Below are positions 39,143 through 64,000 of a stretch of 64,000 nt of DNA, piece by piece. Below the pieces are notes generated by a model. That model was not told where the DNA came from. It worked only from the letters and a program-made list of their open reading frames with translations, and did no database searches. Position numbers and translations under genes: made by a program. This DNA comes from an uncultured Gammaproteobacteria bacterium (lineage in GTDB: Bacteria > Patescibacteriota > Patescibacteriia > Buchananbacterales > UBA6539): NCBI GenBank assembly GCA_964535715.1, contig CAZHUO010000002.1:16916-80915 (forward strand). The letters run 5' to 3'. Numbering within the stretch: the stretch's first letter is position 1; each line of letters starts with the position of its first letter.

Positions 39143-40264
39143 TTATTCGCTATAAATTTTTTTTGTTCTTTCAACCATTTTTTCTAAGCTAAAATAATTT
39201 TCTACATCAATTTTTGCTTGCCTGCCAATTTTTACTGCTAAAACATTATCTTTTAGCAGGCGAGTGATTTTTGTTGCCAAATCAGACGGGCTGAATGGTT
39301 CAACCAGCAAGCCGTTGGTTTCGTTTTTTAACATTTCCGGAATTCCGCCTACTTTTGTGGCAACAATTGGCAAGCCGGCGCGCATCGCTTCCAAAATGGC
39401 ATATGGAAAGCCTTCTTTTATTGAAGGCAAAACGAAAATGTCAAAGGCGTTAAGGTATTTTTTTGCATCCAGTACTTTTGACAAAAAAAAGTTATTTTGC
39501 AAATTAAGACCTCTAATTTTCAATTTTAATTCCTTTTCCAGCTGGCCAAAGCCGATTAATCTGAAAATTATATCAGGAAATTGTTTTGTAATTTCTTTGG
39601 CTGCAGAAATTAAATATGTTAAGCCTTTAGTTTCATAAAAGTTTGCAATAGTTCCAATAACAATTTTATCTGGTGGTAAATCAAGTTTTTGCCTGGCAAT
39701 TACTTTATTTAGAAAATCTATCGGTTCAATGCCGTTATTTATCGTAATAAGCTTATTTTCAGGGGCAATTTTATTTTTTATTCCGGCTTGCCGGTCAAAT
39801 TCCGAAACGCAAATCAGCTTGTCTTTGTATCTGGCGGAAAATTTTTCGGCAAAAGTGTAAATATTTTTTTGCAAGTTGCTCATTGGTTCGTTGAAAACAA
39901 AGCCGTGGACCGTATAGATAATTTTTTTTACTTTAGCATGCTTTCCGGCTATTGCTCCAATTACTCCGGCTTTGCTGCTGTTGAGGTGTAAAACATCGGG
40001 TTTTAATTCATTAATCAATTTTTTTATTTCAAAATATGCCTTTATGTCTTCAAGCGGACTGATTTCTCGAATTAAATGTTTTAATTTATAATTTTTTATG
40101 CCATGTTTGTTCAGTTTACTATAGAGTTCCTCATTTCCGCCGGCCGCTACCATTACTTCATATTTTTCTTGTGGCAAATTTGTCGCTAAATCAAAAATAT
40201 AGTGCTGAGCTCCGCCCCATTCCGATTGAGTAACAATATATAAAATTTTGCTGATTTTAGCCAT
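39143..40264 (-). CDS. Glycosyltransferase family 4
   Basis: SIKEGFPYAILEAMRAGLPIVATKVGGIPEML. Confidence 0.85.
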   Translation of the reverse strand: MAKISKILYIVTQSEWGGAQHYIFDLATNLPQEKYEVMVAAGGNEELYSKLNKHGIKNYKLKHLIREISPLEDIKAYFEIKKLINELKPDVLHLNSSKAGVIGAIAGKHAKVKKIIYTVHGFVFNEPMSNLQKNIYTFAEKFSARYKDKLICVSEFDRQAGIKNKIAPENKLITINNGIEPIDFLNKVIARQKLDLPPDKIVIGTIANFYETKGLTYLISAAKEITKQFPDIIFRLIGFGQLEKELKLKIRGLNLQNNFFLSKVLDAKKYLNAFDIFVLPSIKEGFPYAILEAMRAGLPIVATKVGGIPEMLKNETNGLLVEPFSPSDLATKITRLLKDNVLAVKIGRQAKIDVENYFSLEKMVERTKKIYSE

Positions 40265-40278
40265 TTTTTTAGAGTAAA

Positions 40279-40310
40279 GTTAACTGTTAACTGTTAAATG
40301 TTAACTGTTG
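40279..40310. repeat. Tandem GTTAACT heptamers in a divergent promoter region
   Basis: GTTAACT GTTAACT GTTAAAT GTTAACT GTTG. Three GTTAAC palindromes. Confidence 0.7.
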
Positions 40311-40449
40311 AATTAGTGTTGACCAAAAGTTTAATTTATATAATAATGATAAGGTATAATTGTTTAATAATCAAGCTTAATTTTTACTAAATTTACTTAA
40401 TTTAGCAAAACCCTTTTTGGGGGTTTTATTAAATTTTATAATTCAAACT

Positions 40450-41700
40450 ATGGAAACAAAAATTTGTGTTGTAGGGCTTGGATATGTTGGCTTGCCTTTG
40501 GCCTGCCTTTTTTCAAAAGAATATAAAGTCTATGGTTTTGATGTTAATCAAAAAAAGATTGATGAATTAAAAAATGGCTTTGACCGAACCAATGAAGTTG
40601 AAAATCTGAAAAATTACAAGCTGGAATATTCAAGCGATCCGTCAATAATCAAGAAGGCTAACTTTATTATTGTTGCTGTGCCAACACCGATTTTGTACGA
40701 TAAGCGGCCGGATTTAAGCTTAGTTATCAGCGCCTCAGAGATTGTCGGCAAAAATTTGCAGCCTGGCTCAATCGTGGTTTATGAAAGTACGGTCTATCCT
40801 GGTTGTACTGAAGAAAAATGTTTGCCAATTTTGGAAATGGAGTCAGGGCTAGTCTTGGGTAACGGTTTTAAAATAGGTTATTCGCCGGAACGGGTTAATC
40901 CCGGCGATAAAATTCATACGATTGATAAGATTTTCAAAATTGTTTCTGGAAGCGACAAAGAAGCTTTGGAAAAAATCGCTGAAGTCTATGGATCAATTAC
41001 AAAAATTCATAAAGCTCAAAGCATCAAAGTCGCAGAAGCAGCTAAAGTGATTGAAAATGTCCAGCGCGATTTGAATATAGCTTTGATGAATGAGCTGGCT
41101 TTAATTTTTGATCGTTTGGGAATCAACACCCGCGAAGTAATAGAAGCGGCCGGTACGAAATGGAATTTTCATAAATACTATCCGGGATTAGTTGGCGGAC
41201 ATTGCATCGGTGTTGATCCGTATTATCTGACTTACAAGGCGATGCAAGTCGGTTATAATCCGCAGGTAATTTTGGCCGGTCGGGGTATTAATGAATTTAT
41301 GACAGAATTTGTTGCTTCAAAATTAGTAGATTGCCGAAAAATTTTGGTAATGGGCTTAACCTTTAAAGAAAATGTGACGGATGTCAGAAACAGCAAAGCC
41401 AATGATCTGATAAGTAAACTGCGGGGCCAGGGCTCGGAAGTTTACGGATATGATCCGTTGCTGGAAAATTTTAAAGATGCCTTGTCCCGATTTGGCTATA
41501 CTTTGATTGAAGATTTTCCTCCTGATAAAAAATTTGATGCAATTATATTGTTTAGCCCTCATGATATTTTCAAATCGAAAAAATATTCACTTGATAATCT
41601 AAAAAATATTTGTAATGAAAATCCAATTTTATTTGATATGAAAGGTTTTTATAATAAAATTGATGCGGAAAATTCCGGTTTTAAATATTTAACGCTCTAA
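40450..41700 (+). CDS. Nucleotide-sugar (UDP-N-acetyl-hexosamine type) dehydrogenase
   Basis: KICVVGLGYVGLPLA and GGHCIGVDPYYL. Start at ATG 40450 (METKICVVG). Confidence 0.8.
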   Translation: METKICVVGLGYVGLPLACLFSKEYKVYGFDVNQKKIDELKNGFDRTNEVENLKNYKLEYSSDPSIIKKANFIIVAVPTPILYDKRPDLSLVISASEIVGKNLQPGSIVVYESTVYPGCTEEKCLPILEMESGLVLGNGFKIGYSPERVNPGDKIHTIDKIFKIVSGSDKEALEKIAEVYGSITKIHKAQSIKVAEAAKVIENVQRDLNIALMNELALIFDRLGINTREVIEAAGTKWNFHKYYPGLVGGHCIGVDPYYLTYKAMQVGYNPQVILAGRGINEFMTEFVASKLVDCRKILVMGLTFKENVTDVRNSKANDLISKLRGQGSEVYGYDPLLENFKDALSRFGYTLIEDFPPDKKFDAIILFSPHDIFKSKKYSLDNLKNICNENPILFDMKGFYNKIDAENSGFKYLTL

Positions 41701-41704
41701 TTTG

Positions 41705-42823
41705 ATGAAAGTATTGATAATTTCATTAGCTTACCCGCCGTTTGTCGGCGGTGCTGAGCTGGCAGTAAAAGAAATCACCGATAGGATTTCCAGTTTAAGT
41801 TTTGACATGATTACAGCAAACCTAGATGGAAGACAAAAAGAGTCTGAAAAAATCGGCAACATAAATATATATCGAGTAGGCAAGGGTGTAGTTTCAAAAT
41901 ATTTGTTTCCATTTATCGGCTTTAAAAAAGCTGAAGAATTACATAAAAAAAATAAATACGATGTTGTTTGGGCAATTATGGCAAATCAGGCCGGTTTAGC
42001 GGCTTTAAAATTTAAAAAGAAATTTCCCAATGTCAAATACATTCTGACTTTGCAGGAAGGGGATTCACTTTTAAGAATTTGGTCTCGAACTTGGTTTATG
42101 CGCTCTCGTTATAAAAAAATTTATCTGAAAGCTGATTTAATCCAGGCAATAAGCAATTTTTTGGCCAATCGGGCGAAAAAATACGGCTATAAGGGAAAAA
42201 TGGAAATTGTGCCAAACGGCGTTGACCTTTCCAGTTTTAGCAGGGAATTTGATTTGCAGGAGTTGCTAGATTTTAAAAAAAGTTTGGGTTTGGCTAAAGA
42301 AGATAAAGTTGTAACCACTATATCTCGTTTAGTCCATAAAAACGGAATAGATACTTTGATAAAATCAGCCAGAAATTTATCGGTAAAAGTTTTGATTATC
42401 GGATCAGGCAAGCTTGAAAACAGGCTTAAGTCATTGGCCCAGGAAACAGGGGTTAGGGATAAAGTTTTGTTTTTGGGCTATATTTCTTCTGAAAAGCTCT
42501 CAAAATATTTAAAAATTTCAGATGTGTTTGTTCGGACTTCCCGTTCTGAAGGCCTGGGCTCGGCGTTTTTAGAGGCAATGGCCGCGGAAGTTCCGGTAAT
42601 TGGCACATGCGTCGGTGGTATTCCTGATTTTTTAAAGCCCGAAGAAACAGGCTTATTTTGCGAGGTCGGAAATCCGACTGACTTGGCAAGTAAAATTTCT
42701 GTTTTACTTTCAAACGAGGAATTAAAAAATAAGTTGGTAAAAAACAGCAAAAAGCTAGTTTTGGAAAATTATGACTGGCAGGCAATTTCCCAAAAAATGG
42801 AAAGCGTTTTTAAATCATTATGA
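41705..42823 (+). CDS. Glycosyltransferase family 4
   Basis: SRSEGLGSAFLEAMAAEVPVIGTCVGGIPDFL. Confidence 0.85.
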   Translation: MKVLIISLAYPPFVGGAELAVKEITDRISSLSFDMITANLDGRQKESEKIGNINIYRVGKGVVSKYLFPFIGFKKAEELHKKNKYDVVWAIMANQAGLAALKFKKKFPNVKYILTLQEGDSLLRIWSRTWFMRSRYKKIYLKADLIQAISNFLANRAKKYGYKGKMEIVPNGVDLSSFSREFDLQELLDFKKSLGLAKEDKVVTTISRLVHKNGIDTLIKSARNLSVKVLIIGSGKLENRLKSLAQETGVRDKVLFLGYISSEKLSKYLKISDVFVRTSRSEGLGSAFLEAMAAEVPVIGTCVGGIPDFLKPEETGLFCEVGNPTDLASKISVLLSNEELKNKLVKNSKKLVLENYDWQAISQKMESVFKSL

Positions 42824-42962
42824 ATCCCGTCAGAAGTCGCGGTTATGTTAATTACAAAAACTATCAAAATGTTTAATAAACTTATAAATAATTTAATTTG
42901 GCCAAGCGGTATTGATTTATTTTCTTTAGAGATAAGACAGGCCGCCACCTACTTTTAACGGG

Positions 42963-44135
42963 ATGAAATTATTAATTGCCACAGGCATCTACCCGCCTGA
43001 TATTGGCGGTCCGGCGACAATTTTAAAAGCTTTGGCTGACTCTTTAATCGGTTTGGGTATTAGCGTGAAAATAATTACTTACTCAGAGAAAACAGAAGTT
43101 GTTAAAGATAATGAGATTAAAATTTATAAAATAAACAAGAAAAGATTTTTTCTAAGGCGTTATTTTAGATATTTATATAGATTCTCAAAACTAGCCAAGT
43201 GGGCAGATCTAGTTTATGTAACGGATACTTATAGTGTTGGTTATTTTGCTTATTTGTTAAAAAAATTTTTAAATATAAAATATATTGTTCGCTTTGCCGG
43301 CGATAGCGCCTGGGAAATGTCTGTAGCAAACGGCTGGACTAACGATTATATCGTTGATTTTCAAAAGAAAATTTATAGCAAAAAAATTGAAAAATTAAAA
43401 AATCGTCGAAAGAAAATTTTGTTAAATGCCAACAAAGTAATTGCGGTTAGCAATTTTTTAGCCGATATTGCTGAAGCAATCGGTGTTGCCAAAGATAAAA
43501 TAGAAGTTATATATAATTCAATTGACTTTTTGGAAGATCCAATAAATTTAGTCCGAAAAACAGAAAATATTAAATTTAAGTATGGCAGAAATGCAAAAAT
43601 AATCGTTACTGCTTGCCGACTCACCCCTTGGAAGGGAGTGGCCGGAATTATAAAAATTTTGCCGGAATTAAAAAATAGAATTGGCAACGTAAATTTGCTT
43701 GTTTTAGGAGACGGACAAGAATTGGAAAATTTGAAAAGTTCGGCATTTAATTCTGGAGTTAAAGACGAAGTTATTTTTCTCGGTAAAATTAAACATCAAG
43801 ATATTATTAGTTATTTTAAAGCCGCCGATTTATTTATTCTCAATACAAACTATGAAGGTTTATCCCATACTATATTGGAAGCAATGAAATCCGAAGTGCC
43901 AATCATTACAACCAATATTGGCGGTAATCCGGAGGTAATTACCGACGGCAAAGAAGGTATGTTGATTAATTATGATGATCAGAAAGGCATGTTTGATTCA
44001 GCAGTAAAAATTTTATCCGATAAACAGTTTAGTGAAAGTTTAACTAATCAAGCGAAAGAAAAGTTGAAAGTTTTTAATTGGAAAGATGGCATGGAAAAAA
44101 CACTAGAATTATTAAAAAAAGTCAGCAATGAATAA
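42963..44135 (+). CDS. Glycosyltransferase family 4
   Basis: TNYEGLSHTILEAMKSEVPIITTNIGGNPEVI. Confidence 0.85.
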   Translation: MKLLIATGIYPPDIGGPATILKALADSLIGLGISVKIITYSEKTEVVKDNEIKIYKINKKRFFLRRYFRYLYRFSKLAKWADLVYVTDTYSVGYFAYLLKKFLNIKYIVRFAGDSAWEMSVANGWTNDYIVDFQKKIYSKKIEKLKNRRKKILLNANKVIAVSNFLADIAEAIGVAKDKIEVIYNSIDFLEDPINLVRKTENIKFKYGRNAKIIVTACRLTPWKGVAGIIKILPELKNRIGNVNLLVLGDGQELENLKSSAFNSGVKDEVIFLGKIKHQDIISYFKAADLFILNTNYEGLSHTILEAMKSEVPIITTNIGGNPEVITDGKEGMLINYDDQKGMFDSAVKILSDKQFSESLTNQAKEKLKVFNWKDGMEKTLELLKKVSNE

Positions 44136-45573
44136 GATATTATTAATAAATCCGGCTTTTAATATTGCCAAAGACAACTACGACAGTTCGATTTCAGTCG
44201 GATTATTAAGTATTGCCACATACTTAGATAGTCAAGGAGTAGGGGTGGAAATAGTTGATGGAGCAAGACAAAATAATTATTTGGATTTAATCAAAGCTAA
44301 AGCCTCAGGTTATAATTTTTTCGGCTTGTCGGTAATGACCACTCAAATCCCTGGTGCTTTAAAAATAAGCCAATTAATAAAAGATTTAAATCCAAACTGT
44401 AAAATTATTTGGGGTGGAACCCATCCAACCTTTTTTCCAAAAGAAACAATCGCACATCCTTTAGTTGATATTGTTTGTATTGGCGAAGGGGAATCTACCG
44501 TTTTGGATATAGCTAGCGGTAAAAGTTTAGAAGGAATTGACGGCATTGTCTATAAAAGGAATGATGAAATTATTACTAATCATCCGCGCAAATTGCACAA
44601 TCCCGCCGATATGCCTATTTTTAAATGGAGCCTGATACCGGAAGTGATTTTAAAAAAGTTGGAATTAGTTCCGTCTTTGACTTCGCGTGGTTGTCCGCAC
44701 CGTTGCACTTTTTGTATAAATGCTATTTTGAAAAATAAGTGGCGTGGTCGTACTGTTGATCAAGTTTTGAGTGATTTGGAAACTATAAAAAATAATATAT
44801 ATTTTAAGGGGAAAAATGTAAGATTTTGGGATGAAAATTTTTTTGTTGATATTAATAGATCTAAAGAAATTATCAACGGTATGATTGAAAGAAGTTTAGA
44901 AATACCGTGGGAAACAACAATCAGGGTTGATTATATTAAGGATGGGCAAGTTGATGATAATTTTTTGGCGAAAATTAAAAAGTCCGGCTGTTATCTTCTT
45001 TCTTTCGGAGCGGAATCGGGGTCATCGGAAATTTTAGCCAAGATAAAAAAGGATATTACTGCTGAAGAAATTTTGAATTCGGCAAGAATGTGTTTAAAAC
45101 ATAATATTATTCCTCAATATTCTTTTATGATCGGGTTGCCGGGTGAAAGCAAAAAGGATATGAAGATGACCCTGAAGGTTATTGATCGACTAGTTAAACT
45201 AAGCGATAAAGTTCAAATTCTTGGTCCTCAGGCTTTTAGGCCATATCCGGGATCCACTTTGTATGAAGAATGTATTACTGCTGGCTGGCAGGCTCCTAAA
45301 ACTTTGGAGGATTGGTCTCATTTGATAGAAAATGAATTAAGTTATCTAACTGTTCAAAATTTTCCCTGGGTTAAATATAAAAATTTTGTTGAATCAATGG
45401 AAGCCTATGTCCGTTTTGGCGCCCATAACATTAAAAGTGCAATGGGTTCAACTGTTAAGGCTAAAAAGCTGGTAAAATTAATTTTTGTTTTAATTTGTAA
45501 ATTAAGATGGAAGTTGAAATTTTTTGCCTGGCCAATAGAATTTAAATTAGCTAAAAGGTTTGTTACCAAGTAA
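44128..45573 (+). CDS. B12-binding domain radical SAM protein (class B-like)
   Basis: N-terminal B12-domain-like region (GLSVMTTQ, IIWGGTHPT) followed by TSRGCPHRCTFC (CX3CX2C). Confidence 0.8.
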   Translation: MNKILLINPAFNIAKDNYDSSISVGLLSIATYLDSQGVGVEIVDGARQNNYLDLIKAKASGYNFFGLSVMTTQIPGALKISQLIKDLNPNCKIIWGGTHPTFFPKETIAHPLVDIVCIGEGESTVLDIASGKSLEGIDGIVYKRNDEIITNHPRKLHNPADMPIFKWSLIPEVILKKLELVPSLTSRGCPHRCTFCINAILKNKWRGRTVDQVLSDLETIKNNIYFKGKNVRFWDENFFVDINRSKEIINGMIERSLEIPWETTIRVDYIKDGQVDDNFLAKIKKSGCYLLSFGAESGSSEILAKIKKDITAEEILNSARMCLKHNIIPQYSFMIGLPGESKKDMKMTLKVIDRLVKLSDKVQILGPQAFRPYPGSTLYEECITAGWQAPKTLEDWSHLIENELSYLTVQNFPWVKYKNFVESMEAYVRFGAHNIKSAMGSTVKAKKLVKLIFVLICKLRWKLKFFAWPIEFKLAKRFVTK

Positions 45574-45576
45574 AAT

Positions 45577-48322: not shown

Positions 48323-48326
48323 AATA

Positions 48327-51083: not shown

Positions 51084-51086
51084 TTT

Positions 51087-51710: not shown

Positions 51711-51713
51711 AAT

Positions 51714-52889: not shown

Positions 52890-52982
52890 TTTAGCAAATT
52901 AGCCCAATGGCTAAATATTAATTTGTCAGCAGTGGTTTTTTTTGATATAATTAGTATAATTTATTTTTTATTTATTTGAAAA

Positions 52983-54307: not shown

Positions 54308-54323
54308 ATTTTAACTTAAAATT

Positions 54324-55586: not shown

Positions 55587-55588
55587 AT

Positions 55589-56686: not shown

Positions 56687-56713
56687 AGGTTTACTTTTAA
56701 CATAAATAAATTT

Positions 56714-57085
56714 ATGAATCCAATAATTTTTTTGCTTATAGCTGACGTTTTAATGGCGGTTTGCGGACAGTTGCTTTTAAAAAAAGGAATGACAATATTA
56801 GGGCCGATTGATTTTAACTTAAATAATATTTGGGTTTTAATAATCAGCGCCTTAAAAAATATTTATATTTGGATTGCAGTGATTTGCTATGTGCTGGGCT
56901 TGGTTTTTTGGCTTTTTATTCTGTCAAAAGTCAAACTTTCAGTGGCCTATCCGATAACAGCATTAGTATACGTTTTAGTCGTATTCAGCTCATGGCTTTT
57001 ATTAAAAGAAGAAATAGGTGTATATCAAATTGTTGGAACAGGCTTAATAGTTTTTGGCTTGTTGTTCATGTTTAAATTTTTATAG
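56714..57085 (+). CDS. EamA/SMR-like small membrane transporter (ArnE/ArnF-like flippase subunit)
   Basis: 123 aa, four TM segments, next to a sugar aminotransferase and a large membrane protein. Confidence 0.55.
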   Translation: MNPIIFLLIADVLMAVCGQLLLKKGMTILGPIDFNLNNIWVLIISALKNIYIWIAVICYVLGLVFWLFILSKVKLSVAYPITALVYVLVVFSSWLLLKEEIGVYQIVGTGLIVFGLLFMFKFL

Positions 57086-57086
57086 A

Positions 57087-58874
57087 ATGAACCAAAAAAT
57101 AAAAATTTTTTTTACACGCCATTATCTAGCAATTTTATTTTCTATTTTAGTCGGCTTGATTTATATTTGGCCGCATGTCTGGTTTATCGCATCAAATAGC
57201 GATATTTATCAAGGAATACCCTTAATGCAGATTGATAATGAGGATTTTTACTTAGCCCGAATGCAAGAAATTTTAGACGGTCATCCATCATTAGGGTCGC
57301 CGGCTTTTTTTGAATATAAAGATCAGCCGCCAATGTCTCCGCCAACAGTTGAGATTTTATATGCATTGCCGACTATCTTTTTAGGTATTCCGTTGATAAT
57401 TACGCTTACCGCAAGTAAATTTATTTTACCGTTAGTTCTTTTTTTACTTATTTATTCGTTTATTTTTTCATTGCTTGGCCGTGAAAATAATTTAGCAAAT
57501 AAAATCAGCTCTATTGCTGGCGCAGCCCTTATTTTATTGGGTTATGATTTAATTGATTATCGTTATATTTTTAATTTATTATCAGGGTCTATAGAGCCGA
57601 GCAGATGGCTGATTTGGACAAGACCAGTAAATCCTATAACCGGCGCTATTTTCCTATTTTCTTTTTTATTATTTCTTAAAGCTGCGGTTTGTAATACTAA
57701 AAAATCACTAATACCAGCTATTGGGGCGGGATTTTTTTTGGCCTTGATGTTTTCCAGTTATTTTTTTAGCTGGGGAATTGCACTTTCGATATTAGCTATG
57801 ATGGGATTCTTTTATATTTTACGGCGTAATTATTATGTTGTTAAACGCATTATATTAATATCAATCCTTGGAATATTTTTATCCCTTCCTTACTGGTATT
57901 CATCATGGCAGGCAAAACAAAATATTTGGTACGATGAGGCTTTATTAAAAAGCGGTTTGTTTTATACCCACTACCCATTATTTAATAAAGTATTGATTGT
58001 ATCCTTTCTAATCTACCTCTTATTTTTACTTTTTAAGTTTTTTAATAATTCTCGTCGTTTCAATTTTGAAGACAATGATTATTTTATTTTGGCTCTTTTG
58101 ACCGGTGGCTTATTTGCCTTTAACCAGCAGGTTATTACCGGAATGACTGTTTGGCCATTTCATTTTGTCCAATATACTATTCCTTTTTCGATTATTGCCG
58201 GAATTATAGTATTACATAATATCACATATAAACACTGCAGGGTTGTTTGGCTAATGGCTATAGGTATTATCATTTTGGCTTCATCGTCTTACGGAATATA
58301 TATTCAATTTGCTACATATTCTAATTATTTGGAATATAATAAGTCGGTTCAAGACTATGCGGCATTATTTAAATGGATTAATAGCCAGGAAAAAGACTGC
58401 GTTGTTTTAGTTGCCGGTGATCGCAGGCAATTTAAAGAGCTGAGTGGCTTGGTTCTTGCTTTTACTCATTGCAATCAATATAGTAATGAATGGGCATATA
58501 CCTTAATGCCTTCGGAAAGAGTTTATCATAACTATTTAGTTAATTTGAGAATGAAAGGAATATCAGCTGATGGGTTTGAAGAATATTTACAAAAAAATTT
58601 CTCAGAAGCAAGATCTTTTTTGTTTTCTAATTGGGCGGGATTATACGGAGTTTCTACATTTCCTGACTTTACAGATGAAAAATTACAAGAAAGAATCAAA
58701 GGGTTGCCTGGTGATTATCATGAGTTTCTAAAAAAAGATTTTAAAACAGAACTAAATAAATATCGTTTGGATTTTATTATATCTTTTGGGCCCTTGTCGG
58801 AGCAGGCTATGAGTCAATTAAGTGATATAAAATTTCTTGAAAAAATAAATAATTTGTTCATTTATGAATATTAA
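57087..58874 (+). CDS. Large polytopic membrane protein, possible GT-C-type glycosyltransferase
   Basis: More than 10 TM segments then a soluble C-terminal domain. The function call rests on context only. Start at ATG 57087. Confidence 0.4.
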   Translation: MNQKIKIFFTRHYLAILFSILVGLIYIWPHVWFIASNSDIYQGIPLMQIDNEDFYLARMQEILDGHPSLGSPAFFEYKDQPPMSPPTVEILYALPTIFLGIPLIITLTASKFILPLVLFLLIYSFIFSLLGRENNLANKISSIAGAALILLGYDLIDYRYIFNLLSGSIEPSRWLIWTRPVNPITGAIFLFSFLLFLKAAVCNTKKSLIPAIGAGFFLALMFSSYFFSWGIALSILAMMGFFYILRRNYYVVKRIILISILGIFLSLPYWYSSWQAKQNIWYDEALLKSGLFYTHYPLFNKVLIVSFLIYLLFLLFKFFNNSRRFNFEDNDYFILALLTGGLFAFNQQVITGMTVWPFHFVQYTIPFSIIAGIIVLHNITYKHCRVVWLMAIGIIILASSSYGIYIQFATYSNYLEYNKSVQDYAALFKWINSQEKDCVVLVAGDRRQFKELSGLVLAFTHCNQYSNEWAYTLMPSERVYHNYLVNLRMKGISADGFEEYLQKNFSEARSFLFSNWAGLYGVSTFPDFTDEKLQERIKGLPGDYHEFLKKDFKTELNKYRLDFIISFGPLSEQAMSQLSDIKFLEKINNLFIYEY

Positions 58875-58953: not shown

Positions 58954-58982
58954 TTGACACCATCATAAATTGCAGTTATAAT
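58954..58982 (+). promoter_or_regulatory. Consensus sigma70 promoter with duplicated -35 box
   Basis: TTGACA (58954-58959), 17 nt, TATAAT (58977-58982). TTGACACC is directly repeated (58944-58951 and 58954-58961). Confidence 0.6.
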
Positions 58983-59007: not shown

Positions 59008-59256
59008 ATGAATCAAGAAATTAAGCCAAACGCAGTTTATACTACCGAGGAAACTCAAGAATTACTTAAAATCAGCAGGAGTACTATTAAACGAATGCTT
59101 AAGAAAGGCTTGATCCGAGCAAATAAAGTTGGCGCCCAATATCGAATTTTAGGTAAAGAGATTTTAAGATTAGTTTCGCCTGAAATTGAGAAAGAGGCGG
59201 CTAAGCGCTACATGAAGGTTAAGGGTAAGGTAGTTGAAACCATTAATAAATGGTAG
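59008..59256 (+). CDS. Excisionase-family helix-turn-helix DNA-binding protein
   Basis: YTTEETQELLKISRSTIKRMLKKGLIRANKVGAQYRI. Confidence 0.65.
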   Translation: MNQEIKPNAVYTTEETQELLKISRSTIKRMLKKGLIRANKVGAQYRILGKEILRLVSPEIEKEAAKRYMKVKGKVVETINKW

Positions 59257-59272: not shown

Positions 59273-61069
59273 ATGACAGCCAAAAATAATCGCGTCGTTA
59301 CAATAATTAAATTATCCAATAAAGCTTTTGGTAAGTATAAAAAGCAGATTTTAATTTTGATTCTTTTAGGATTTGCTGGGGCATTTTTGGAAGGCATTGG
59401 AGTAAATGCCATTATTCCGCTTTTTTCTTTTGTTATTGGCGATACTCAAAATAATAGCGATATGATTTCGCAAGTAATTGAACAGTTTTTTGGATTTATA
59501 AAAATTGATTTCAATGTAAACTATTTGCTGATTTTTATCATAATTATGTTTGTCTTAAGATCATTTATTAAAGTTTATCTTGATTATGTAAGAATAAAGA
59601 TTACTGCAGAGTATGAGAATGAAACCCGTAACTTCATTTTTCAGAAAATATTAAAATCTGATTGGCCACATTTAATAAAACAAAAATTAGGATACCTCGA
59701 AAATATTATGCTAATAGACGTTCCTTATAGTGCCCTTATCCTTCGGGAAATTAGTACTATTATAATGTTAGCTACGAGTTTGATTGTTTATCTTTTGGTG
59801 GCTTTTAATATTAATTTAATAATTACACTTTTAACCTTAGCTTTGGGGTTGATAATTTTTTTGGTTTTAAAGCCCCTAAATTATAAGACAAAAGTCTTAT
59901 CTACTGATTCTGCCAAGCAGAATAAAAACATTACTCACCATATTACGGAAAATATTTTAGGAATTAAAACCGTAAAAAGTATGTGGGTTTCTTCCGGTGT
60001 TGAAGAAAAAGGAAAATATTTTTTTGATAAACTCTATAATATTAAAATAAAAATTTTTGTTATCAAAAGTATTATTAGTTCGTTTATTCAGCCAATAGGT
60101 TTAATTTTTGTTTGTTTGGTTTTTGCTTTTACTTATAAATCCTCGAGTTTTAATCTAGCTTCTTTGGCGGCAATTATTTATTTAATTCAGAAAATTTTTA
60201 CTTATATTCAACAACTTCAGCAAAGTCTAAATATTATGAATGAAAAATTGCCTTATTTAAAAAGTTCTCTTGATTATCAAGAGCAAGCCATTAAAAATGA
60301 AGAAGAAAATTATGGAAATAAGAAGTTTGTCTTTAATGACGAATTAAGATTCAACAATGTTAATTTTAAATATAGTGAAAACGATAATGAAAGAAAAGTG
60401 CTGAATGATATTAGTTTTACTGTTAAAAAAGGAGAGATGGTCGGTATGATTGGTCCTTCTGGCGTGGGTAAAACTACTTTAGTCGATTTAATATTAAGAC
60501 TTTTGAAACCGGATAGCGGCAGTATTACCTTGGATGGTGAAGATATATCAAAAATTGATCTAAAATCTTGGCGTAAGAATATTGGATATATATCTCAAGA
60601 TATGTTTTTAATGAATGACACAATTGCCAATAATATTAAATTTTATGATAATTCTATTACTGATGATAATTTAATTAAAGCGGCTAAGATGGCAAATATT
60701 TACGAATTTATTGAAAATTTACCGGATAAATTTGAAACCAACATCGGCGAACGGGGAGTCAGGCTTTCCGCCGGTCAGCGCCAGAGAGTAGTGATTGCTC
60801 GTATTTTAGCTCATGGTCCGGAGATTTTAATTCTTGATGAAGCTACTAGTGCTCTTGATAATCAATCAGAAATTAAAATACAAAAAGTTTTAGATAATTT
60901 AAAGGGTAATATTACAGTTTTGGCAATTGCCCATCGGTTAACAACGGTCGAAGGATCGGATAAGCTTTTAATTGTAGAAAATGGATGTATCAGCGAACAA
61001 GGGCTTCCTCAGGAGTTATTAAAGAACAGGGAGTCTTATTTTTCTAAAACGTATAATCTAAAAAAATAA
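59273..61069 (+). CDS. ABC transporter, fused permease/ATPase (MsbA-like exporter)
   Basis: Six TM segments. Walker A GPSGVGKTT, signature LSAGQRQR, Walker B ILILDEATS. Start at ATG 59273. Confidence 0.85.
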   Translation: MTAKNNRVVTIIKLSNKAFGKYKKQILILILLGFAGAFLEGIGVNAIIPLFSFVIGDTQNNSDMISQVIEQFFGFIKIDFNVNYLLIFIIIMFVLRSFIKVYLDYVRIKITAEYENETRNFIFQKILKSDWPHLIKQKLGYLENIMLIDVPYSALILREISTIIMLATSLIVYLLVAFNINLIITLLTLALGLIIFLVLKPLNYKTKVLSTDSAKQNKNITHHITENILGIKTVKSMWVSSGVEEKGKYFFDKLYNIKIKIFVIKSIISSFIQPIGLIFVCLVFAFTYKSSSFNLASLAAIIYLIQKIFTYIQQLQQSLNIMNEKLPYLKSSLDYQEQAIKNEEENYGNKKFVFNDELRFNNVNFKYSENDNERKVLNDISFTVKKGEMVGMIGPSGVGKTTLVDLILRLLKPDSGSITLDGEDISKIDLKSWRKNIGYISQDMFLMNDTIANNIKFYDNSITDDNLIKAAKMANIYEFIENLPDKFETNIGERGVRLSAGQRQRVVIARILAHGPEILILDEATSALDNQSEIKIQKVLDNLKGNITVLAIAHRLTTVEGSDKLLIVENGCISEQGLPQELLKNRESYFSKTYNLKK

Positions 61070-61070
61070 T

Positions 61071-62567
61071 ATGAAGGTTTGTTTTTTACTACAAAGAGAA
61101 TTTGCTTATATAGGCCATGATTTAGCTGTTCATTTGAAAAACCGTCATGGAATTGAAGAATTTTGTGCTTATGTATTAAATCGTCCGAGTTACAGGTTTC
61201 TTAAATTTCAAAAAGAAATTAATTATTCCAGTTTACTTTTAGATGAAGATCTTCACCGCAAGGCCGAAAAAGAAAAATTGGATTTGAAGTATGTAAAATT
61301 TTTAGAAGAAGAATATGGTATTCCTAATCTTTGGCCGTATGTTGAAGTCGACAGAATTATCCGTCTTAACCAATTGGTCAGAGAATATCCCATGGAAGCC
61401 AGAAAGTATACTCACGAGCAAATGATGATTCAAATTCAAGTTCGAGCCAAAGCCATTATTGAGATGCTGGAAAAAGAAAAGCCTGATTATTTGTTTTGTA
61501 CTGTTGTCGGCGGCATAGGGGGGCTATTACTTTTTAATATTGCCAAAAAAATGGGAATAAATGTCCGCATGATAATGCCGGGAAAAGTTGGGACAAGATA
61601 TCTAATTTCCGAGGCTTATGACAGTTTTGTAGAAATTGACAAGGAACTTGATTCTCTCATTGCAGACGGCAAAAATGTAGATAACTATGAAGAGGCTAAA
61701 AAAATTCTGATTGATTTTAGAAATCATCCGACTTCATATGCAAAAATGACAAATTTTTATTTAGAACGTGCCAGACAAATCAAACAGTTTGATTTTATTC
61801 TACCATCAAAAGTGGTCAGATATTTAAATTGGCTTTTTGGCAGGGTGTATTATTATTTTTCCCAAGAAGATAAATATGATTATACTTATATAAAAATTTT
61901 ACCAAAAATAAAGGATCAAATAGTTCGTAAATTGCGGGCAGTAAGGGGAATGAATGATCTCTTCGATGATATTGATTTGGATAATGAAGACTTTGTTTTT
62001 TTTCCTCTCCATATGGAACCAGAGACTACCTTGCTTCTTTATGCTTATAGATATACAAATCAGATTGAAGTAATAAAGCAGGTTGCAAAATCTTTGCCAA
62101 TTCATTTTAAACTTTATGTTAAAGAACACCCCCGCATGGTTGGTTTTAGGACTCGTAAATATTATAAGGAATTAAAGAAGATTCCCAACGTTAAATTAGT
62201 AAGACATCAGGCTAGCAGTCTGGAATTAATAAAGAAAGCCAGGCTGGTTACTGTCATTAGCGGTTCGGCTGGCTGGGAAGCTATTCAGCTGAAAATTCCA
62301 GTCATTACTTTTGGCGGAGTATTTTTTAACAAGCTTTCAATGGTCAAAAGTTGTGATAGTTATAATAAATTATCTAACATTGTAAAGCAGCAATTGGAAA
62401 ATTTTGATTATAACGAAGAAGAGATTATTAATTATGTTGGATTAATACTAAAACATAGCGTACTTGTTGATTTAAGACATCTTTGGCATCATGAATCAGA
62501 TAAAAAGAAAAAAAGAGAAGATCTAACAATATTAGCTGATTTAATTGCTGAGTATATAAAAAAATGA
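61071..62567 (+). CDS. Capsule polysaccharide biosynthesis protein family (KpsS/LpsZ-like)
   Basis: FFPLHMEPETTL...LYVKEHPRM pattern and context. Motif-level call. Confidence 0.5.
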   Translation: MKVCFLLQREFAYIGHDLAVHLKNRHGIEEFCAYVLNRPSYRFLKFQKEINYSSLLLDEDLHRKAEKEKLDLKYVKFLEEEYGIPNLWPYVEVDRIIRLNQLVREYPMEARKYTHEQMMIQIQVRAKAIIEMLEKEKPDYLFCTVVGGIGGLLLFNIAKKMGINVRMIMPGKVGTRYLISEAYDSFVEIDKELDSLIADGKNVDNYEEAKKILIDFRNHPTSYAKMTNFYLERARQIKQFDFILPSKVVRYLNWLFGRVYYYFSQEDKYDYTYIKILPKIKDQIVRKLRAVRGMNDLFDDIDLDNEDFVFFPLHMEPETTLLLYAYRYTNQIEVIKQVAKSLPIHFKLYVKEHPRMVGFRTRKYYKELKKIPNVKLVRHQASSLELIKKARLVTVISGSAGWEAIQLKIPVITFGGVFFNKLSMVKSCDSYNKLSNIVKQQLENFDYNEEEIINYVGLILKHSVLVDLRHLWHHESDKKKKREDLTILADLIAEYIKK

Positions 62568-63496
62568 TTACCATAAGTTCAATTTGTTATCATTATATTG
62601 CTAGAGGGGATGAATTTAAAAGGATTTGGGGGCACAGCTTTGAGCTTTTCAAAGAGCATATAGATTTTTTTAAAAAGAATAAAAGAATTATTGACCCGCA
62701 AGATGTTTTGCATGAAAGATTTGAAGAAGGGAATAATTATATTCTTTTGACATTCGATGATGGTCTGAAAGAGCATATTAGGATAGCTGATTATTTAGAT
62801 AGTCTAAAGCTGAAAGGGATTTTTGCTATCCCAACTTGCATATTAAGAGAAGAACCTTCAAATCCCCAGATAATCCATTTTGGCTCGGCCTATTATGGAA
62901 TAAGAAAATTCTATAGCTTCGTTGCCAAAGAAATAGAAAGTAATTTTTCTCAAGATTATTTTTTGCTGGCAGAGAAGCCAAATAGATTAGACATCAATGA
63001 GTTGCACAGAACTACTAAAGATATTTTTAAACGCAGAGTGGCACCGGTAATAGGCAGGAGGATATTATTAAATATTTTTAATAACAAAATTAAAAAGGAT
63101 TTTCCAAATTTTATGGAATTGGTGCATTTAAATAAGAAAGACATTGTTAATTTGGTAAAAAAAGGGCATACTGTTGCGGTTCACTCCGATACCCACCCTG
63201 TTGTTAGGAATATTGAAACAGATAAAGGCTTAATTTCAAAAGAAATTATGAAATCAAAGGCAAGTCTTTCCGGTTTAATTGGCCGGGAAGTGGAAATTTT
63301 TGCTTATCCTTTTGGAGAAAAAAATGATATTATAAATGATACAACAATTTTGACTGAAGCTGGCTATAAACAAATTTTAACCACTTATCAAGCCGGATTA
63401 GATTTTAATCAGTTGAATCTGGGTAGATATTGTTCACAAAGCCAGGATCAAGCTGAAAATTTGGCTAACCAGCTTTGGAAATATAAAGTTAAATAA
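62564..63496 (+). CDS. Polysaccharide deacetylase family protein
   Basis: LLTFDDGLKEH and HSDTHP. Confidence 0.75.
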   Translation: MITISSICYHYIARGDEFKRIWGHSFELFKEHIDFFKKNKRIIDPQDVLHERFEEGNNYILLTFDDGLKEHIRIADYLDSLKLKGIFAIPTCILREEPSNPQIIHFGSAYYGIRKFYSFVAKEIESNFSQDYFLLAEKPNRLDINELHRTTKDIFKRRVAPVIGRRILLNIFNNKIKKDFPNFMELVHLNKKDIVNLVKKGHTVAVHSDTHPVVRNIETDKGLISKEIMKSKASLSGLIGREVEIFAYPFGEKNDIINDTTILTEAGYKQILTTYQAGLDFNQLNLGRYCSQSQDQAENLANQLWKYKVK

Positions 63497-63500
63497 TATT

Positions 63501-64000
63501 ATGAATATAAAAAAAGTAGTATTGCTTAATAAAGTCGGGGATATTATTGATGGAATCGAAAAACCTGTTGATTCCTATAATTCAGGCAATATTTATCCTC
63601 TAGTGATTGAAAATTATGTTTGGAACAAAGAGATGCAAAGAAACAGTGCTGAAATTTATAAGGATAAAATTAAAAGGGTTTATGATATAGATAATATTCC
63701 CGGAGAAACTAAAAAAATGGTTGAAGATGATATATGCAGAATAGATTTAATAAAGACTTTTGACTATGGACCCAAGGTGTTGGAAGTTGGTTGCAGTGAT
63801 GGAACTGTCAGTATCAAACTTGCTGAATTACCGACCACTGAATTAATTTTAGGAATTGATATACGCCAATCTGCTATTGATGATGGACATAATTTGATTG
63901 ACAAGCTAGTTAAGGAAAAAAAATTAACCAATGAAGCGGCAAAAAAAGTCAGGCTGGAAGAATTTAGAATAGAAGATTTACCGGTTAATTATGGTAAATA
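63501..64000 (+). CDS. SAM-dependent methyltransferase (5' partial, runs off the window)
   Basis: ATG 63501, open to the window end. Motif I VLEVGCSDG. Not in the ORF track because no stop is present. Confidence 0.6.
   Translation, partial: MNIKKVVLLNKVGDIIDGIEKPVDSYNSGNIYPLVIENYVWNKEMQRNSAEIYKDKIKRVYDIDNIPGETKKMVEDDICRIDLIKTFDYGPKVLEVGCSDGTVSIKLAELPTTELILGIDIRQSAIDDGHNLIDKLVKEKKLTNEAAKKVRLEEFRIEDLPVNYGK

Follow-up and report, generated by a model that had tools for sequence, protein, structure and literature searches.

The locus studied here raises the question of what product its many glycan genes build, and by which route. It lies in a window of 64,000 nucleotides (the whole stretch of DNA analysed) and is a gene cluster for the assembly of a richly decorated glycan on the cell surface, which probably ends in a sialic-acid-like cap and carries sulfate. 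The host, an uncultured bacterium of low GC content, probably belongs to the Patescibacteria/CPR, judging from the names of homologues. With slightly better than even confidence, we favour a modular undecaprenyl-phosphate (Und-P)-based pathway in which an ABC transporter flips the lipid-linked chain, a GT-C enzyme adds an outside branch, and Wzy_C proteins ligate or polymerise it, possibly onto a nearby S-layer-like protein.

A preliminary description had delimited a cluster of ~25 kb running off the window end. The continuation was recovered on an identical public contig (L001; 11,437 of 11,437 shared bases identical), which adds ~16 kb past the window end and reaches window-equivalent coordinate ~80223, so that the earlier size was too narrow. 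The locus measures ~41–48 kb with at least 36 genes, and the window contains about half. It probably starts upstream, at a Wzy_C+TPR gene (32423-34759), and paralogous Wzy_C+TPR genes bracket the whole region. The earlier reading of an envelope glycan with dense methylation, amidation and amination is supported, and is strengthened by the continuation, which brings a nonulosonic-acid pathway, a sulfation module, a 3-deoxygenation-type enzyme, a phosphoglycosyltransferase for initiation and another ligase-like gene of the Wzy_C family.

Annotation with Pfam and NCBIfam recovered every gene of the preliminary description at its correct position; one HTH gene (59008-59256) had been overlooked. 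The listed genes are intact, tightly packed ORFs with gaps of -14 to +27 bp, except for one of 185 bp (divergent, at 40264/40450) and three of 93-139 bp. Strong promoter-like sites and hairpins coincide exactly with these sole sizeable gaps, although such calls are consensus matches only, with totals close to shuffle expectation. A hairpin (52899-52914) follows GT4 f, a promoter-like site (52923-52951; score 11/12 plus TG) precedes the GT2 gene, and a perfect TTGACA-17-TATAAT (58954-58982) lies just upstream of the HTH_17 gene; a further hairpin (39086-39115) lies downstream of the GT4 a 3' end. The region resembles a set of four or more transcription units or modules and not a single pathway. 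Assignments below family level all lie under NCBIfam equivalog cut-offs for eight proteins (dehydrogenase, DegT, ArnC-like, ArnE/F-like, ABC, NeuB, NeuA and CysQ). Module A (40450-52889) and the GT4 gene before it comprise:

39143-40264 (-): GT4 a, divergently transcribed (PF00534, 135.9 bits)
40450-41700 (+): UDP-HexNAc-type 6-dehydrogenase, first gene of module A (PF03721/PF00984/PF03720)
41705-42823 (+): GT4 b (PF00534, 149 bits)
42963-44135 (+): GT4 c (PF00534, 127 bits)
44128-45573 (+): B12-binding radical SAM enzyme (PF02310 and PF04055)
45577-46686 (+): GT4 d (Pfam)
46673-47284 (+): SAM methyltransferase 1 (Pfam)
47285-48322 (+): GT4 e (Pfam; 63% identical to its L011 counterpart)
48327-49238 (+): 303-aa protein of an unannotated family, possibly GT-A-type (53% identical copy in L011)
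49239-51083 (+): AsnB-type glutamine amidotransferase (PF00733, 282 bits)
51087-51710 (+): SAM methyltransferase 2 (Pfam)
51714-52889 (+): GT4 f, end of module A (Pfam)

The six GT4s are mutually only 21-31% identical and are therefore not recent duplicates; together with the possible GT-A enzyme they would lengthen the chain in the cytoplasm, in a presumed order. The earlier suggestion of a GT-A gene stays tentative: the 303-aa protein itself has no Pfam or PDB match, but its family, which counts 863 representatives in the 50% library, shares an invariant pattern of DxD, NxG and H, and two of 35 relatives match PF03407 (at 7.8e-5). Invariant residues are H87, D89, G90, D163, N212, G214, H280 and R286, and the DxD begins with D161, which at least 90% of the family conserve; the protein is a possible GT-A-type glycosyltransferase on this pattern. 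The dehydrogenase, for which ATG at 40450 is favoured as start over TTG at 40417, passes TIGR03026 (369 bits) and has TviB (UDP-GlcNAc 6-dehydrogenase) as best NCBIfam match (395 bits, under the equivalog cut-off); it would yield a HexNAc uronic acid. From its pairing with this enzyme, the AsnB-type protein (TIGR01536, 440 bits vs 267) would turn the uronic acid into a uronamide, a role for which we take WbpS-type enzymes to be a precedent, so that module A could provide either sugar. The radical SAM enzyme carries both Pfam domains and a CxxxCxxC motif (CPHRCTFC); its best NCBIfam matches (HpnJ, BchE, PhpK) are all far under cut-offs, and it is probably a Class-B-type methylase of unactivated carbon. 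With the SAM methyltransferases it would add O-, N- or C-methyl groups.

Module B (52983-58874) comprises:

52983-53720 (+): ArnC/PpgS/DPM1-like GT2, a polyprenyl-phosphate sugar synthase by likeness, first gene of module B (PF00535)
53720-54307 (+): SAM methyltransferase 3 (Pfam)
54324-55586 (+): TylC3-type sugar C-methyltransferase (PF08421 and PF08484, Methyltransf_13+14)
55589-56686 (+): DegT aminotransferase (PF01041)
56714-57085 (+): ArnE/ArnF-like small flippase, 4 TM segments (PF00892, EamA)
57054/57087-58874 (+): 606-aa membrane protein, ~11-12 TM, assigned to the GT-C fold

The best NCBIfam matches are ArnC, PgfS, Dol-P-hexose transferase and PpgS for the GT2, PseC, ArnB and LegC for DegT, and ArnF (53 bits) and ArnE (35 bits) for the small transporter, all under cut-off. 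The 606-aa protein has no Pfam match; it is a membrane glycosyltransferase with a GT-C fold, from a family that is restricted to CPR and lacks a Pfam model. The GT2 would load a C-methylated and/or aminated sugar on Und-P, the ArnE/F-like protein would flip it, and the GT-C enzyme would attach the sugar outside the membrane. The C-methyltransferase and DegT pair recurs in L009, L010 and L014 (71% and 60% identity in L014).

Module C begins at 59008 and continues beyond the window; its first methyltransferase, with the four above, completes the five that had been counted:

59008-59256 (+): HTH_17/excisionase-family DNA-binding protein, 82 aa, first gene of module C (PF12728, 45.7 bits; TIGR01764, 37 bits vs 28.8)
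59273-61069 (+): fused TMD-NBD ABC half-transporter (PF00664 and PF00005)
61071-62567 (+): KpsS/KpsC-like protein (Pfam Capsule_synth)
62564-63496 (+): polysaccharide deacetylase (PF01522, 45 bits)
63501-64000 (+): SAM methyltransferase 5, truncated at the window end (complete in L001, 274 aa)
off-window, to the end of the locus, in order: short NeuB, NeuC, NeuA, SemiSWEET, methyltransferase 6, sulfotransferase
then: pyruvate kinase (PK)-ATP-sulfurylase-APS-kinase, CysQ, GT2, SDR, RfbH-like, Bac_transf phosphoglycosyltransferase (-), Wzy_C+TPR

NeuC passes its equivalog cut-off (373.9 vs 235.9), and the short NeuB keeps the HCVSxYP, GYSDH and EKHFT motifs, with the 290-aa NeuB 6ncs as best match. 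NeuC, NeuB and NeuA would produce a CMP-nonulosonic acid, most simply Neu5Ac-like as there is no accompanying dehydratase/acetyltransferase set. The pyruvate-kinase-PAPS-synthase fusion exceeds the domain cut-offs for sulfate adenylyltransferase and APS kinase and is accompanied by a sulfotransferase (PF00685) and CysQ, which makes a complete sulfation module; the fusion and CysQ would supply the PAPS-dependent sulfotransferase, which with the deacetylase and two methyltransferases would further alter the chain. The pairing of the deacetylase with the KpsS-like gene is conserved, L011 having a copy of 54% identity at the matching position. The off-window GT2 is the second of the locus, and the RfbH-like protein is a dehydrase of 3-deoxygenation type. 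There is no obvious nucleotidyltransferase in the locus for the precursor sugars of the C-methyltransferase and RfbH-like enzymes, and the sole candidate 4,6-dehydratase is an SDR protein of 311 aa, a weak match. The phosphoglycosyltransferase passes TIGR03025 (389.5 bits vs 295.6) and would be a WbaP/WcaJ-type enzyme that begins the chain on Und-P. An UppS gene is also present in the window (16974-17666; PF01255, 286.7 bits), so the Und-PP carrier is made.

Structure prediction groups the KpsS-like protein with the retaining ulosonic-acid transferases WbbB, KpsC and KrkA, supporting its membership among them, and in six loci its gene lies together with one for a CMP-sugar synthetase. It would act as a CMP-nonulosonate transferase, attaching the nonulosonic acid probably as a terminal cap; a precedent is Acinetobacter baumannii KpsS1, a KpsS homologue experimentally shown to be a retaining pseudaminic-acid transferase (GT118; as cited in PMC12887879). 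The adjoining ABC protein (HepA 348, MsbA 321, PglK 249 bits, all under equivalog cut-offs) would flip the completed lipid-linked glycan. The product could instead be a lipid-anchored capsule or lipoglycan made by a group-2-capsule-like route, in which the KpsS-like enzyme primes a membrane lipid, e.g., (lyso)phosphatidylglycerol, with a (non)ulosonic acid, the GT4s extend it in the cytoplasm and the ABC transporter exports the lipid-linked polymer. A lipid-linked polymer was among the options of the preliminary description; in structure the KpsS-like protein comes nearest to KpsC and WbbB, and its gene is immediately beside the ABC gene in the window, L011 and L006. However, a KpsC partner, KpsM/KpsT-type ABC-2 transporter and KpsD/E are lacking, the ABC protein is of the fused MsbA/PglK/HepA type, and the classical Und-P phosphoglycosyltransferase and two Wzy_C proteins would be unneeded. 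Moreover, KpsS1, the characterised KpsS homologue that handles a nonulosonic acid, acts on a repeat unit, not a lipid primer. We therefore regard the group-2-like route as improbable.

The upstream flank, which includes a candidate acceptor, comprises:

27312-30881: S-layer-like 1189-aa protein with signal peptide
31678-32421 (+): TPR protein, one N-terminal TM (Pfam TPR families)
32423-34759 (+): Wzy_C membrane protein with C-terminal TPR domain (PF04932, 68.4 bits vs cut-off 31.7)
34756-37617 (+): CotH kinase and beta-helix (Pfam)
37621-38376 (+): VTC domain protein (Pfam)
38390-39076 (+): DUF4956 membrane protein (Pfam)

The Wzy_C family includes polymerases, lipid-A-core ligases and protein O-oligosaccharyltransferases; the upstream gene and its paralogue (28-42% identity; L012 18433-21120), which closes the locus, would polymerise the glycan, ligate it to an acceptor, or both. 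By position, the TPR protein would belong to the locus and is a possible accessory to the adjoining ligase-like gene. The CotH/VTC/DUF4956 trio also occurs within a homologous glycan locus on a Taylorbacteria contig (L014), directly upstream of a GT-C homologue. The 1189-aa protein (pI 4.5; rich in T/A/S/G/V) has 22 NxS/T sequons vs 13.0 +/- 3.1 in shuffles, and a surface protein such as this would be our preferred acceptor, although the sequence alone may fit a protein-linked or a lipid-linked product. YkuD and UppS are peptidoglycan enzymes near the locus, and a Wzy_C-polymerised secondary cell-wall or teichuronic-acid-like heteropolysaccharide on peptidoglycan rather than protein would suit their proximity, the uronic-acid chemistry of the TviB-like dehydrogenase and AsnB, two Wzy_C paralogues serving as polymerase and ligase, and anionic decorations typical of such polymers (nonulosonic acid and sulfate). 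Pfam found no LytR-CpsA-Psr (LCP) ligase, Wzx flippase or chain-length regulator (Wzz/PCP) in ~48 kb, so the assembly route is not fixed by gene content; this argues against a wall polymer, as does the C-terminal TPR on Wzy_C if it is a protein-interaction module, which it resembles. We consider such a polymer unlikely. What the analysis shows is the gene content, folds, family assignments and module conservation, whereas the substrates, step order and acceptor of the favoured Und-P-based pathway are inferred from sequence.

Instead of one glycan, the modules might also yield two or three distinct products. An island of independent adjacent loci, in which, for example, B is a protein-mannosyltransferase-like single-sugar system, C yields a sialylated oligosaccharide and A an unrelated GT4-built polymer, would accord with the four or more putative transcription units and with the different combinations and orders of modules in L006, L007, L009-L011 and L014-L016. 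Against this, the whole region yielded only one initiating phosphoglycosyltransferase and one exporter, paralogous genes bracket it, and L011 combines core genes of modules A and C, which makes independent loci unlikely in our judgement. The closest relative, L011 retains GT4 e, the 303-aa protein, methyltransferase 2, GT4 f, ABC, KpsS-like, deacetylase, NeuC/A and phosphoglycosyltransferase genes at 44-79% identity; its ~18 kb recovered contain no module B, AsnB, radical SAM or sulfation genes.

No synteny to any characterised polysaccharide locus was found in what was searched, nor any relevant literature tying CPR to these glycan functions; the nearest relatives come from CPR metagenome bins, where the genes are unannotated ('hypothetical'). 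The tailoring, described earlier as unusually heavy, is so against classical O-antigen and capsule loci but is normal among related CPR loci; as these reuse the same parts in many CPR lineages, heavy tailoring is lineage-typical rather than unique. The kind of system encoded is familiar, and most of its parts are without studied relatives.

The stretch from 39143 to 64000 is nearly wall-to-wall coding, with 22 of its 23 open reading frames (ORFs) on the forward strand and gaps of −14 to +27 bp between them, save for one of 185 bp (divergent, 40264/40450) and three of 93–139 bp; its GC content (30–35%) is slightly lower than that of the housekeeping part upstream in the window. The full gene list that the preliminary description had drawn up for this envelope-glycan cluster was borne out by Pfam and NCBIfam: six GT4 genes and one GT2 gene; a nucleotide-sugar dehydrogenase (best match the UDP-GlcNAc 6-dehydrogenase TviB), listed there as UDP-HexNAc-type; five methyltransferases, namely four SAM methyltransferases and one TylC3-type C-methyltransferase (Methyltransf_13/14); an AsnB-type amidotransferase that passes TIGR01536; a DegT aminotransferase; an ArnE-like small transporter (a 4-TM EamA protein with best matches to ArnF/ArnE); an MsbA-like ABC exporter (fused, HepA/MsbA/PglK type); a KpsS-like protein with a Capsule_synth (KpsS/KpsC) match; and a polysaccharide deacetylase. 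The GT-C-like membrane protein is supported by the predicted fold of its AlphaFold model. The six GT4s are only 21–31% identical to each other, and thus are old, distinct enzymes. No close synteny to a characterised polysaccharide locus was found in the data searched, and Rfam and tRNA scans identified no RNA element within the cluster.

The extent originally given (~25 kb) proved too small. An exact look-up of the deacetylase led to a 42.9-kb public assembly contig (L001) that agrees with the window at each of the 11,437 bases they share and carries the continuation of the cluster, which does run off the window end. Identical contigs occur in the samples SRR34875126, SRR11845633/4 and SRR29243436. 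Measured from 39143, the locus reaches window-equivalent 80223 and is about 41 kb long; its length becomes about 48 kb with a start at 32423, where the upstream copy of two paralogous Wzy_C+TPR genes lies (32423–34759); these two genes bracket the locus. Between the first of them and the reported cluster is a CotH–VTC–DUF4956 trio, which is probably part of the locus because the same trio sits mid-way in a homologous glycan locus on a Taylorbacteria contig (L014, 3113–6928). Beyond the second Wzy_C+TPR gene is a subtilase with FG-GAP repeats; this is unrelated biology, and the locus is therefore taken to end there.

Genes within and around the locus (window positions unless marked L001; genes from the window-edge methyltransferase onward are in the order in which they occur)
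14485–15216 (reverse strand), L,D-transpeptidase (YkuD)
16974–17666, undecaprenyl-diphosphate synthase UppS (PF01255, 287 bits)
25591–26178, ECF sigma factor, overlapping a DUF5667 membrane protein (26168–27052)
34756–39076, trio of CotH kinase with right-handed beta-helix, VTC (polyphosphate-polymerase-like) domain protein and DUF4956 membrane protein
59008–59256, HTH_17/excisionase-type gene (82 aa), absent from the preliminary description
Window edge, methyltransferase, full length (274 aa) on L001
L001 11755–12585, short NeuB (276 aa) without SAF domain
L001, after NeuB, NeuC, passing its equivalog cut-off
L001, after NeuC, NeuA/PseF-like CMP-sugar synthetase
L001 14454–14726, SemiSWEET (PQ-loop) transporter (90 aa), between NeuA and a methyltransferase
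L001, after SemiSWEET, further methyltransferase, then PF00685 sulfotransferase
L001 16541–19327 (window-equivalent 69104–71890), fusion of pyruvate-kinase catalytic domain, ATP sulfurylase and APS kinase (928 aa)
L001, after the fusion, CysQ, second GT2 and SDR, in that order
L001, after the SDR, RfbH-like PLP enzyme (412 bits, cut-off 423)
L001, opposite strand, WbaP/WcaJ-class polyprenyl phosphoglycosyltransferase (PGT), passing TIGR03025
L001, last gene of the locus, Wzy_C+TPR protein (895 aa)

A SemiSWEET sugar uniporter is unusual within a glycan biosynthesis operon. Elsewhere in the window, a gene run at 531–7674 encodes a radical SAM/SPASM protein (531–2018), a methyltransferase (2075–2884), GNAT, NUDIX and peptidase S51 proteins, a holin-like 4-TM PF04020 protein (4755–5090), a second radical SAM protein (5823–6845) and a second polysaccharide deacetylase (6847–7674), and may be a peptide-modification or further envelope-modification cluster. 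A marginal Rfam tRNA match on the reverse strand (15791–15861; 30.6 bits, gathering score 29), with no ARAGORN call and ~290 nt from tRNA-Pro(CGG) (16146–16222), may represent a degenerate or unusual tRNA.

Sizeable forward-strand gaps are few in the cluster, and it is these that hold the region's best promoter-like sites, a pattern suggestive of internal promoters separating putative transcription units. By consensus match only, a perfect sigma-70 site (TTGACA-17-TATAAT, 58954–58982) precedes the HTH_17 gene, and an 11/12 site with an extended −10 TG (52923–52951) precedes an ArnC-like GT2; hairpins are predicted at 39086–39115 and 52899–52914. These candidate sites would split the locus into functionally sensible units.

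Putative modules of the locus
40450–52889, module A: dehydrogenase, five GT4s, radical SAM enzyme, two methyltransferases, GT-A candidate and AsnB
52983–58874, module B: ArnC-like GT2, methyltransferase, C-methyltransferase, DegT, ArnE/F-like flippase and GT-C protein
59008 onward, module C: regulator, ABC exporter, probable nonulosonate transferase, deacetylase, methyltransferases, nonulosonate synthesis, sulfation and further deoxy/amino-sugar genes

Module A most likely builds a backbone containing a HexNAc-uronic acid or uronamide with methyl groups. Its radical SAM enzyme combines a B12-binding domain (PF02310, 70.6 bits) with a radical SAM domain (PF04055, 68.2 bits), and its translation includes the CxxxCxxC motif as 'CPHRCTFC'; it reaches no equivalog (best HpnJ, 157 vs 578 bits), and its domain content is consistent with a class B methylase. 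The product of 48327–49238 (unk303), which had been proposed as a possible GT-A enzyme, is still a candidate only, with two of 35 relatives touching PF03407, weakly. The family comprises 863 representatives with an invariant H-x-D-G, DxD, N-x-G, H pattern, and neither single-sequence nor profile searches of the PDB identified a solved relative.

In module B, the 606-aa polytopic membrane protein (57087–58874) has no match in Pfam, NCBIfam or PDB by sequence, ArnT/PMT_2 included. An AlphaFold model built with an alignment of 42 homologues (pLDDT 87.5, pTM 0.90) supports a GT-C fold. Candidates for the conserved acidic residues of a GT-C first extracytoplasmic loop lie just after TM1: E63 (near-invariant, like N62, both at least 90%), D75 (at least 90%) and E87 (invariant). 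The same putative operon encodes the ArnC/PpgS-like GT2 and the ArnE/F-like flippase, a context compatible with a polyprenyl-phosphate donor, and the pairing of GT2 with GT-C recurs in two homologous neighbourhoods (L007 and L014). Module B most likely has the classical three-component layout, which would transfer one modified sugar from an Und-P donor on the outer side of the membrane. It resembles the ArnC/ArnEF/ArnT (L-Ara4N), GtrA/GtrB/GtrC and CsbB/GtcA/YfhO systems in that an ArnC-like GT2, a 4-TM ArnE/F-like protein and a GT-C protein share one putative operon, here with DegT, and a deacetylase-family gene is nearby. Unlike these systems, module B encodes C- and O/N-methyltransferases, which imply a different sugar. 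The Arn pathway itself was rejected for module B: there is no ArnA (decarboxylase/formyltransferase), all matches to Arn equivalogs are below their cut-offs (ArnB, 153 vs 631; ArnC, 85.5 vs 529; ArnE/F, 53 vs 99). As a further difference from the systems named above, the organism is not expected to have lipid A. The C-methyltransferase has the TylC3/EvaC-type domain set (PF08421, 64.4 bits; PF13489, 46.9 bits; PF08484, 124.1 bits), and the sole candidate for supplying it with an NDP-4-keto sugar is a weak 4,6-dehydratase-like SDR encoded beyond the window.

The KpsS-like protein (61071–62567) matches Capsule_synth (PF05159) at 35.5 bits (gathering score 20) over residues 331–420, and this domain is carried by all of the homologues listed (at least 120). 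A single-sequence search gave a weak match to KpsC (E 2.4e-4), and a profile of 40 family members matched KpsC with an E of 4.4e-11 and with the K-x-HP motif aligned. This CMP-binding HP motif, which aligns with 'vKvHP' of KpsC, has K351 and P354 without exception in the family and H353 in at least 90% of its members; the invariant acidic residues D94, E105, D270, D282, E318 and E403 may include the catalytic Asp nucleophile and Glu base expected of a retaining ulosonic-acid transferase. The modelled structure is a two-Rossmann GT-B-like fold, nearest to WbbB/KpsC. PF05159 and this predicted fold place the protein with the retaining ulosonic-acid transferases KpsC/KpsS (GT107), WbbB (GT99), KrkA (GT140) and KpsS1 (GT118), but it is ~500 aa with a long helical insert, sequence likeness is recognisable only in its C-terminal ~80–130 residues, and its family is CPR-wide and annotated only as 'hypothetical'. 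For KpsS1, the KpsS homologue of Acinetobacter baumannii and founder of GT118, a 2026 JBC paper reports experimental characterisation as a retaining transferase of pseudaminic acid (PMC12887879). Like kpsS1 in Acinetobacter K loci, the KpsS-like gene adjoins a CMP-nonulosonate pathway, lying three genes upstream of NeuB/NeuC/NeuA, and a CTP_transf_3 gene is close to it in five further neighbourhoods as well (L006, L007, L009, L010 and L011). From the KpsC profile match, the KpsS1 precedent and the Neu/CTP_transf_3 neighbours, we infer that the KpsS-like protein is probably a retaining CMP-nonulosonate transferase. A group 2 capsule, which a KpsS-like protein together with an ABC exporter might suggest, was rejected: no KpsC, KpsM/KpsT ABC-2 or KpsD/KpsE is encoded within the ~48 kb examined, and the ABC protein of the locus is a fused MsbA/HepA/PglK-type exporter, unlike the ABC-2 pair KpsM/KpsT of group 2.

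The pathway genes bear on the likely donor sugar. The putative CMP-sugar synthetase (PF02348) has PseF as its best NCBIfam match (186.9 bits, cut-off 205.7) and scores at most 60 bits on KdsB models, which argues against Kdo as the donor. NeuC is a hydrolysing UDP-GlcNAc 2-epimerase (TIGR03568, 373.9 bits, cut-off 235.9, full length); an epimerase of this type, in a locus without PseB, PseH and PseG, led to the rejection of a pseudaminic-acid pathway; legionaminic acid may still be the product, although the acetyltransferase for it is missing. The putative NeuB carries PF03102 and retains the HCVSxYP and GYSDH motifs, and its best PDB match is a 290-aa NeuB (6ncs, E 3.5e-30). Its TIGR03569 match (198 bits, cut-off 399.7) spans only model positions 2–234 of 329, and thus there is no SAF domain. 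The closest relative locus, L011, carries a normal, SAF-containing NeuB (8794–9873). Between the two loci, identity reaches 79% for NeuC and 73% for NeuA, the neighbouring genes, but only 33% for NeuB, a pattern suggesting that the short NeuB is a gene replacement, possibly with a different substrate.

Further along module C, the locus is predicted to encode a full PAPS-dependent sulfation set of ATP sulfurylase, APS kinase, sulfotransferase and PAP phosphatase. The PAPS-synthase fusion passes NF003166 (430.5 bits, cut-off 387) and, in its kinase domain, TIGR00455 (174.4 bits, cut-off 138.7); the sulfotransferase (PF00685/PF13469) has a marginal match to the characterised NoeE (E 6e-6), and CysQ falls below its cut-off (165 vs 228.8 bits). 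PAPS synthesis, sulfotransferase and CysQ inside a glycan locus are also found for rhizobial Nod factor/LPS, cyanobacterial sulfated EPS and haloarchaeal S-layer N-glycans, but the PAPS synthase of this locus has a pyruvate-kinase catalytic domain as its N-terminal fusion partner. This part comprises the A/B domains without the C-terminal regulatory domain, with the 'IISKIE', 'RGDL' and 'PTRAEVNDV' motifs intact. The architecture of pyruvate kinase plus sulfurylase, with or without the APS kinase, occurs in all of the best 120 homologues listed, which belong to many CPR lineages and to Woese-/Nanoarchaeota (DPANN), and a literature search found no paper linking pyruvate kinase and ATP sulfurylase in a fusion. 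The fusion may allow local regeneration of ATP from PEP to drive PAPS synthesis.

The most economical account of the whole is a five-step, Und-P-based model employing the PGT and two Wzy_C proteins. The glycan would be assembled on Und-P in the cytoplasm, flipped by the ABC exporter in a PglK-like manner, side-branched outside the cytoplasm by the GT-C protein, polymerised and/or ligated by the Wzy_C proteins, and attached to an acceptor, which may be protein, wall or lipid; the modules may feed one product or several. UppS is encoded in the window, so that the organism would make its own Und-PP carrier and an Und-P carrier would be available; the presence of YkuD indicates predicted peptidoglycan remodelling. 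The locus encodes the parts that Wzy_C-dependent ligation or polymerisation calls for, namely an ABC exporter, the PGT and two polytopic membrane proteins with a Wzy_C domain (PF04932), and the Wzy_C set could act as ligase, protein O-oligosaccharyltransferase or polymerase (WaaL/PglL/Wzy).

A candidate for the acceptor is a 1189-aa secreted protein (27312–30881), whose gene precedes the first Wzy_C gene by ~1.5 kb. No Pfam family matches it, and in composition it resembles an S-layer protein (T 12.0, A 11.4, S 10.1, G 9.8 and V 8.8%; Cys 0.2%; pI 4.5). It contains 22 NxS/T sequons vs 13.0 ± 3.1 in shuffled sequences, of which 4 in 1000 reach 22. These features are suggestive of a plausible glycan acceptor. 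Directly upstream of its gene, the DUF5667 protein looks like an anti-sigma factor, and the pair that it forms with the ECF sigma factor may serve envelope regulation.

Among known systems, Neisseria pgl/PglL, Geobacillus/Paenibacillus WsaP–WsaB and the Tannerella forsythia O-glycan cluster have the same Und-P PGT start, cytoplasmic glycosyltransferases, flippase and Wzy_C enzyme outside the membrane, although no sequence-level synteny with them was established. The T. forsythia glycan contains a nonulosonic acid, ManNAc-uronic acid/uronamide and methylation, like the glycan predicted here. The present locus differs from those O-glycan loci in adding sulfation, a B12-radical SAM enzyme, a C-methyltransferase and a GT-C side branch, and in having an ABC half-transporter instead of Wzx and two Wzy_C+TPR genes. 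By analogy, it would work like a Wzy_C-type glycosylation pathway to which an Arn/Gtr-like three-component decoration and an Acinetobacter-like KpsS1 transferase have been added.

Those homologues of the KpsS-like protein, the GT-C protein and the PAPS-synthase fusion that carry a lineage name are all from CPR/Patescibacteria, with the fusion also in DPANN archaea; they span Magasanik-, Giovannoni-, Falkow-, Niyogi-, Taylor-, Komeili-, Portnoy-, Lloyd-, Sung-, Doudna-, Yanofsky- and Paceibacteria, and nearly all are annotated as 'hypothetical'. These names and the CPR-typical domains DUF5667 and DUF5656 indicate that the host probably belongs to the CPR/Patescibacteria. A scan of species-representative genomes recovered relatives at 44–61% in three bins, one of Saccharibacteria, one of Omnitrophota and one with the label 'Gammaproteobacteria'. 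Seven neighbourhoods of homologues (L006, L009–L011 and L014–L016) reuse parts in varying combinations: the C-methyltransferase plus DegT pair, AsnB, B12-radical SAM, Methyltransf_21, GT4s, Capsule_synth, CTP_transf_3, sulfotransferase and the CotH trio. L011 shares GT4e, unk303, methyltransferase MT2, GT4f, the ABC exporter, the KpsS-like protein, deacetylase, NeuC/NeuA and PGT at 44–79% identity; genes for module B, AsnB, a radical SAM enzyme or sulfation were not seen in the ~18 kb of it that was recovered. The locus is thus one of a widespread, modular and uncharacterised class of CPR glycan loci. The kind of system, a locus for surface-glycan biosynthesis, is well known. The heavy tailoring stressed in the preliminary description is real in that tailoring genes are dense; because relatives reuse the same parts, it is typical of the class and not peculiar to this genome.

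One neighbourhood, L007 (CAZFKS010000006.1), comes from a bin labelled 'uncultured Gammaproteobacteria' and carries a KpsS-like gene (43%), the pyruvate-kinase–sulfurylase fusion (60%), CysQ, NeuA/B/C and a GT2 plus GT-C-like pair in one CPR-like block. Either the bin is wrongly assembled or labelled, or the module was transferred horizontally.

CPR/Patescibacteria are ultra-small, and many are thought to be attached to host cells. To our knowledge, their surface chemistry, which must mediate attachment, is essentially unknown, and we know of no experimental data on CPR surface glycans. Literature searches linking CPR/Patescibacteria to nonulosonic/sialic acid, sulfotransferase/PAPS, O-antigen ligase or S-layer glycosylation found nothing relevant. 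The outcome is a well-supported annotation with testable hypotheses, and not a new kind of system; what rises above routine is the predicted chemistry of nonulosonic acid, sulfate, uronamide and C-methyl/branched amino sugar, the structural assignment of two CPR-wide enzyme families, and the fusion of pyruvate kinase to PAPS synthase. A joint reading, which we consider improbable as a whole, would have a sulfated and C-methylated glycan with a nonulosonate cap cover an S-layer-type protein of these CPR, with the KpsS-like family as a clade of retaining nonulosonate transferases not recognised before, the ~600-aa family as a new GT-C protein glycosyltransferase (OST/PMT-like) acting on the sequon-rich 1189-aa protein, and the fusion as an ATP-regenerating device; if true, this device would make sulfation affordable for energy-poor fermenters. 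Three enzyme candidates could be expressed without cultivation: the retaining ulosonic-acid transferase family, the GT-C family without a Pfam model and the fusion. The locus and its relatives in at least 10 named CPR lineages show a shared modular glycan toolkit, which includes sialic-acid-like sugars, sulfate, uronamides and branched/methylated sugars.
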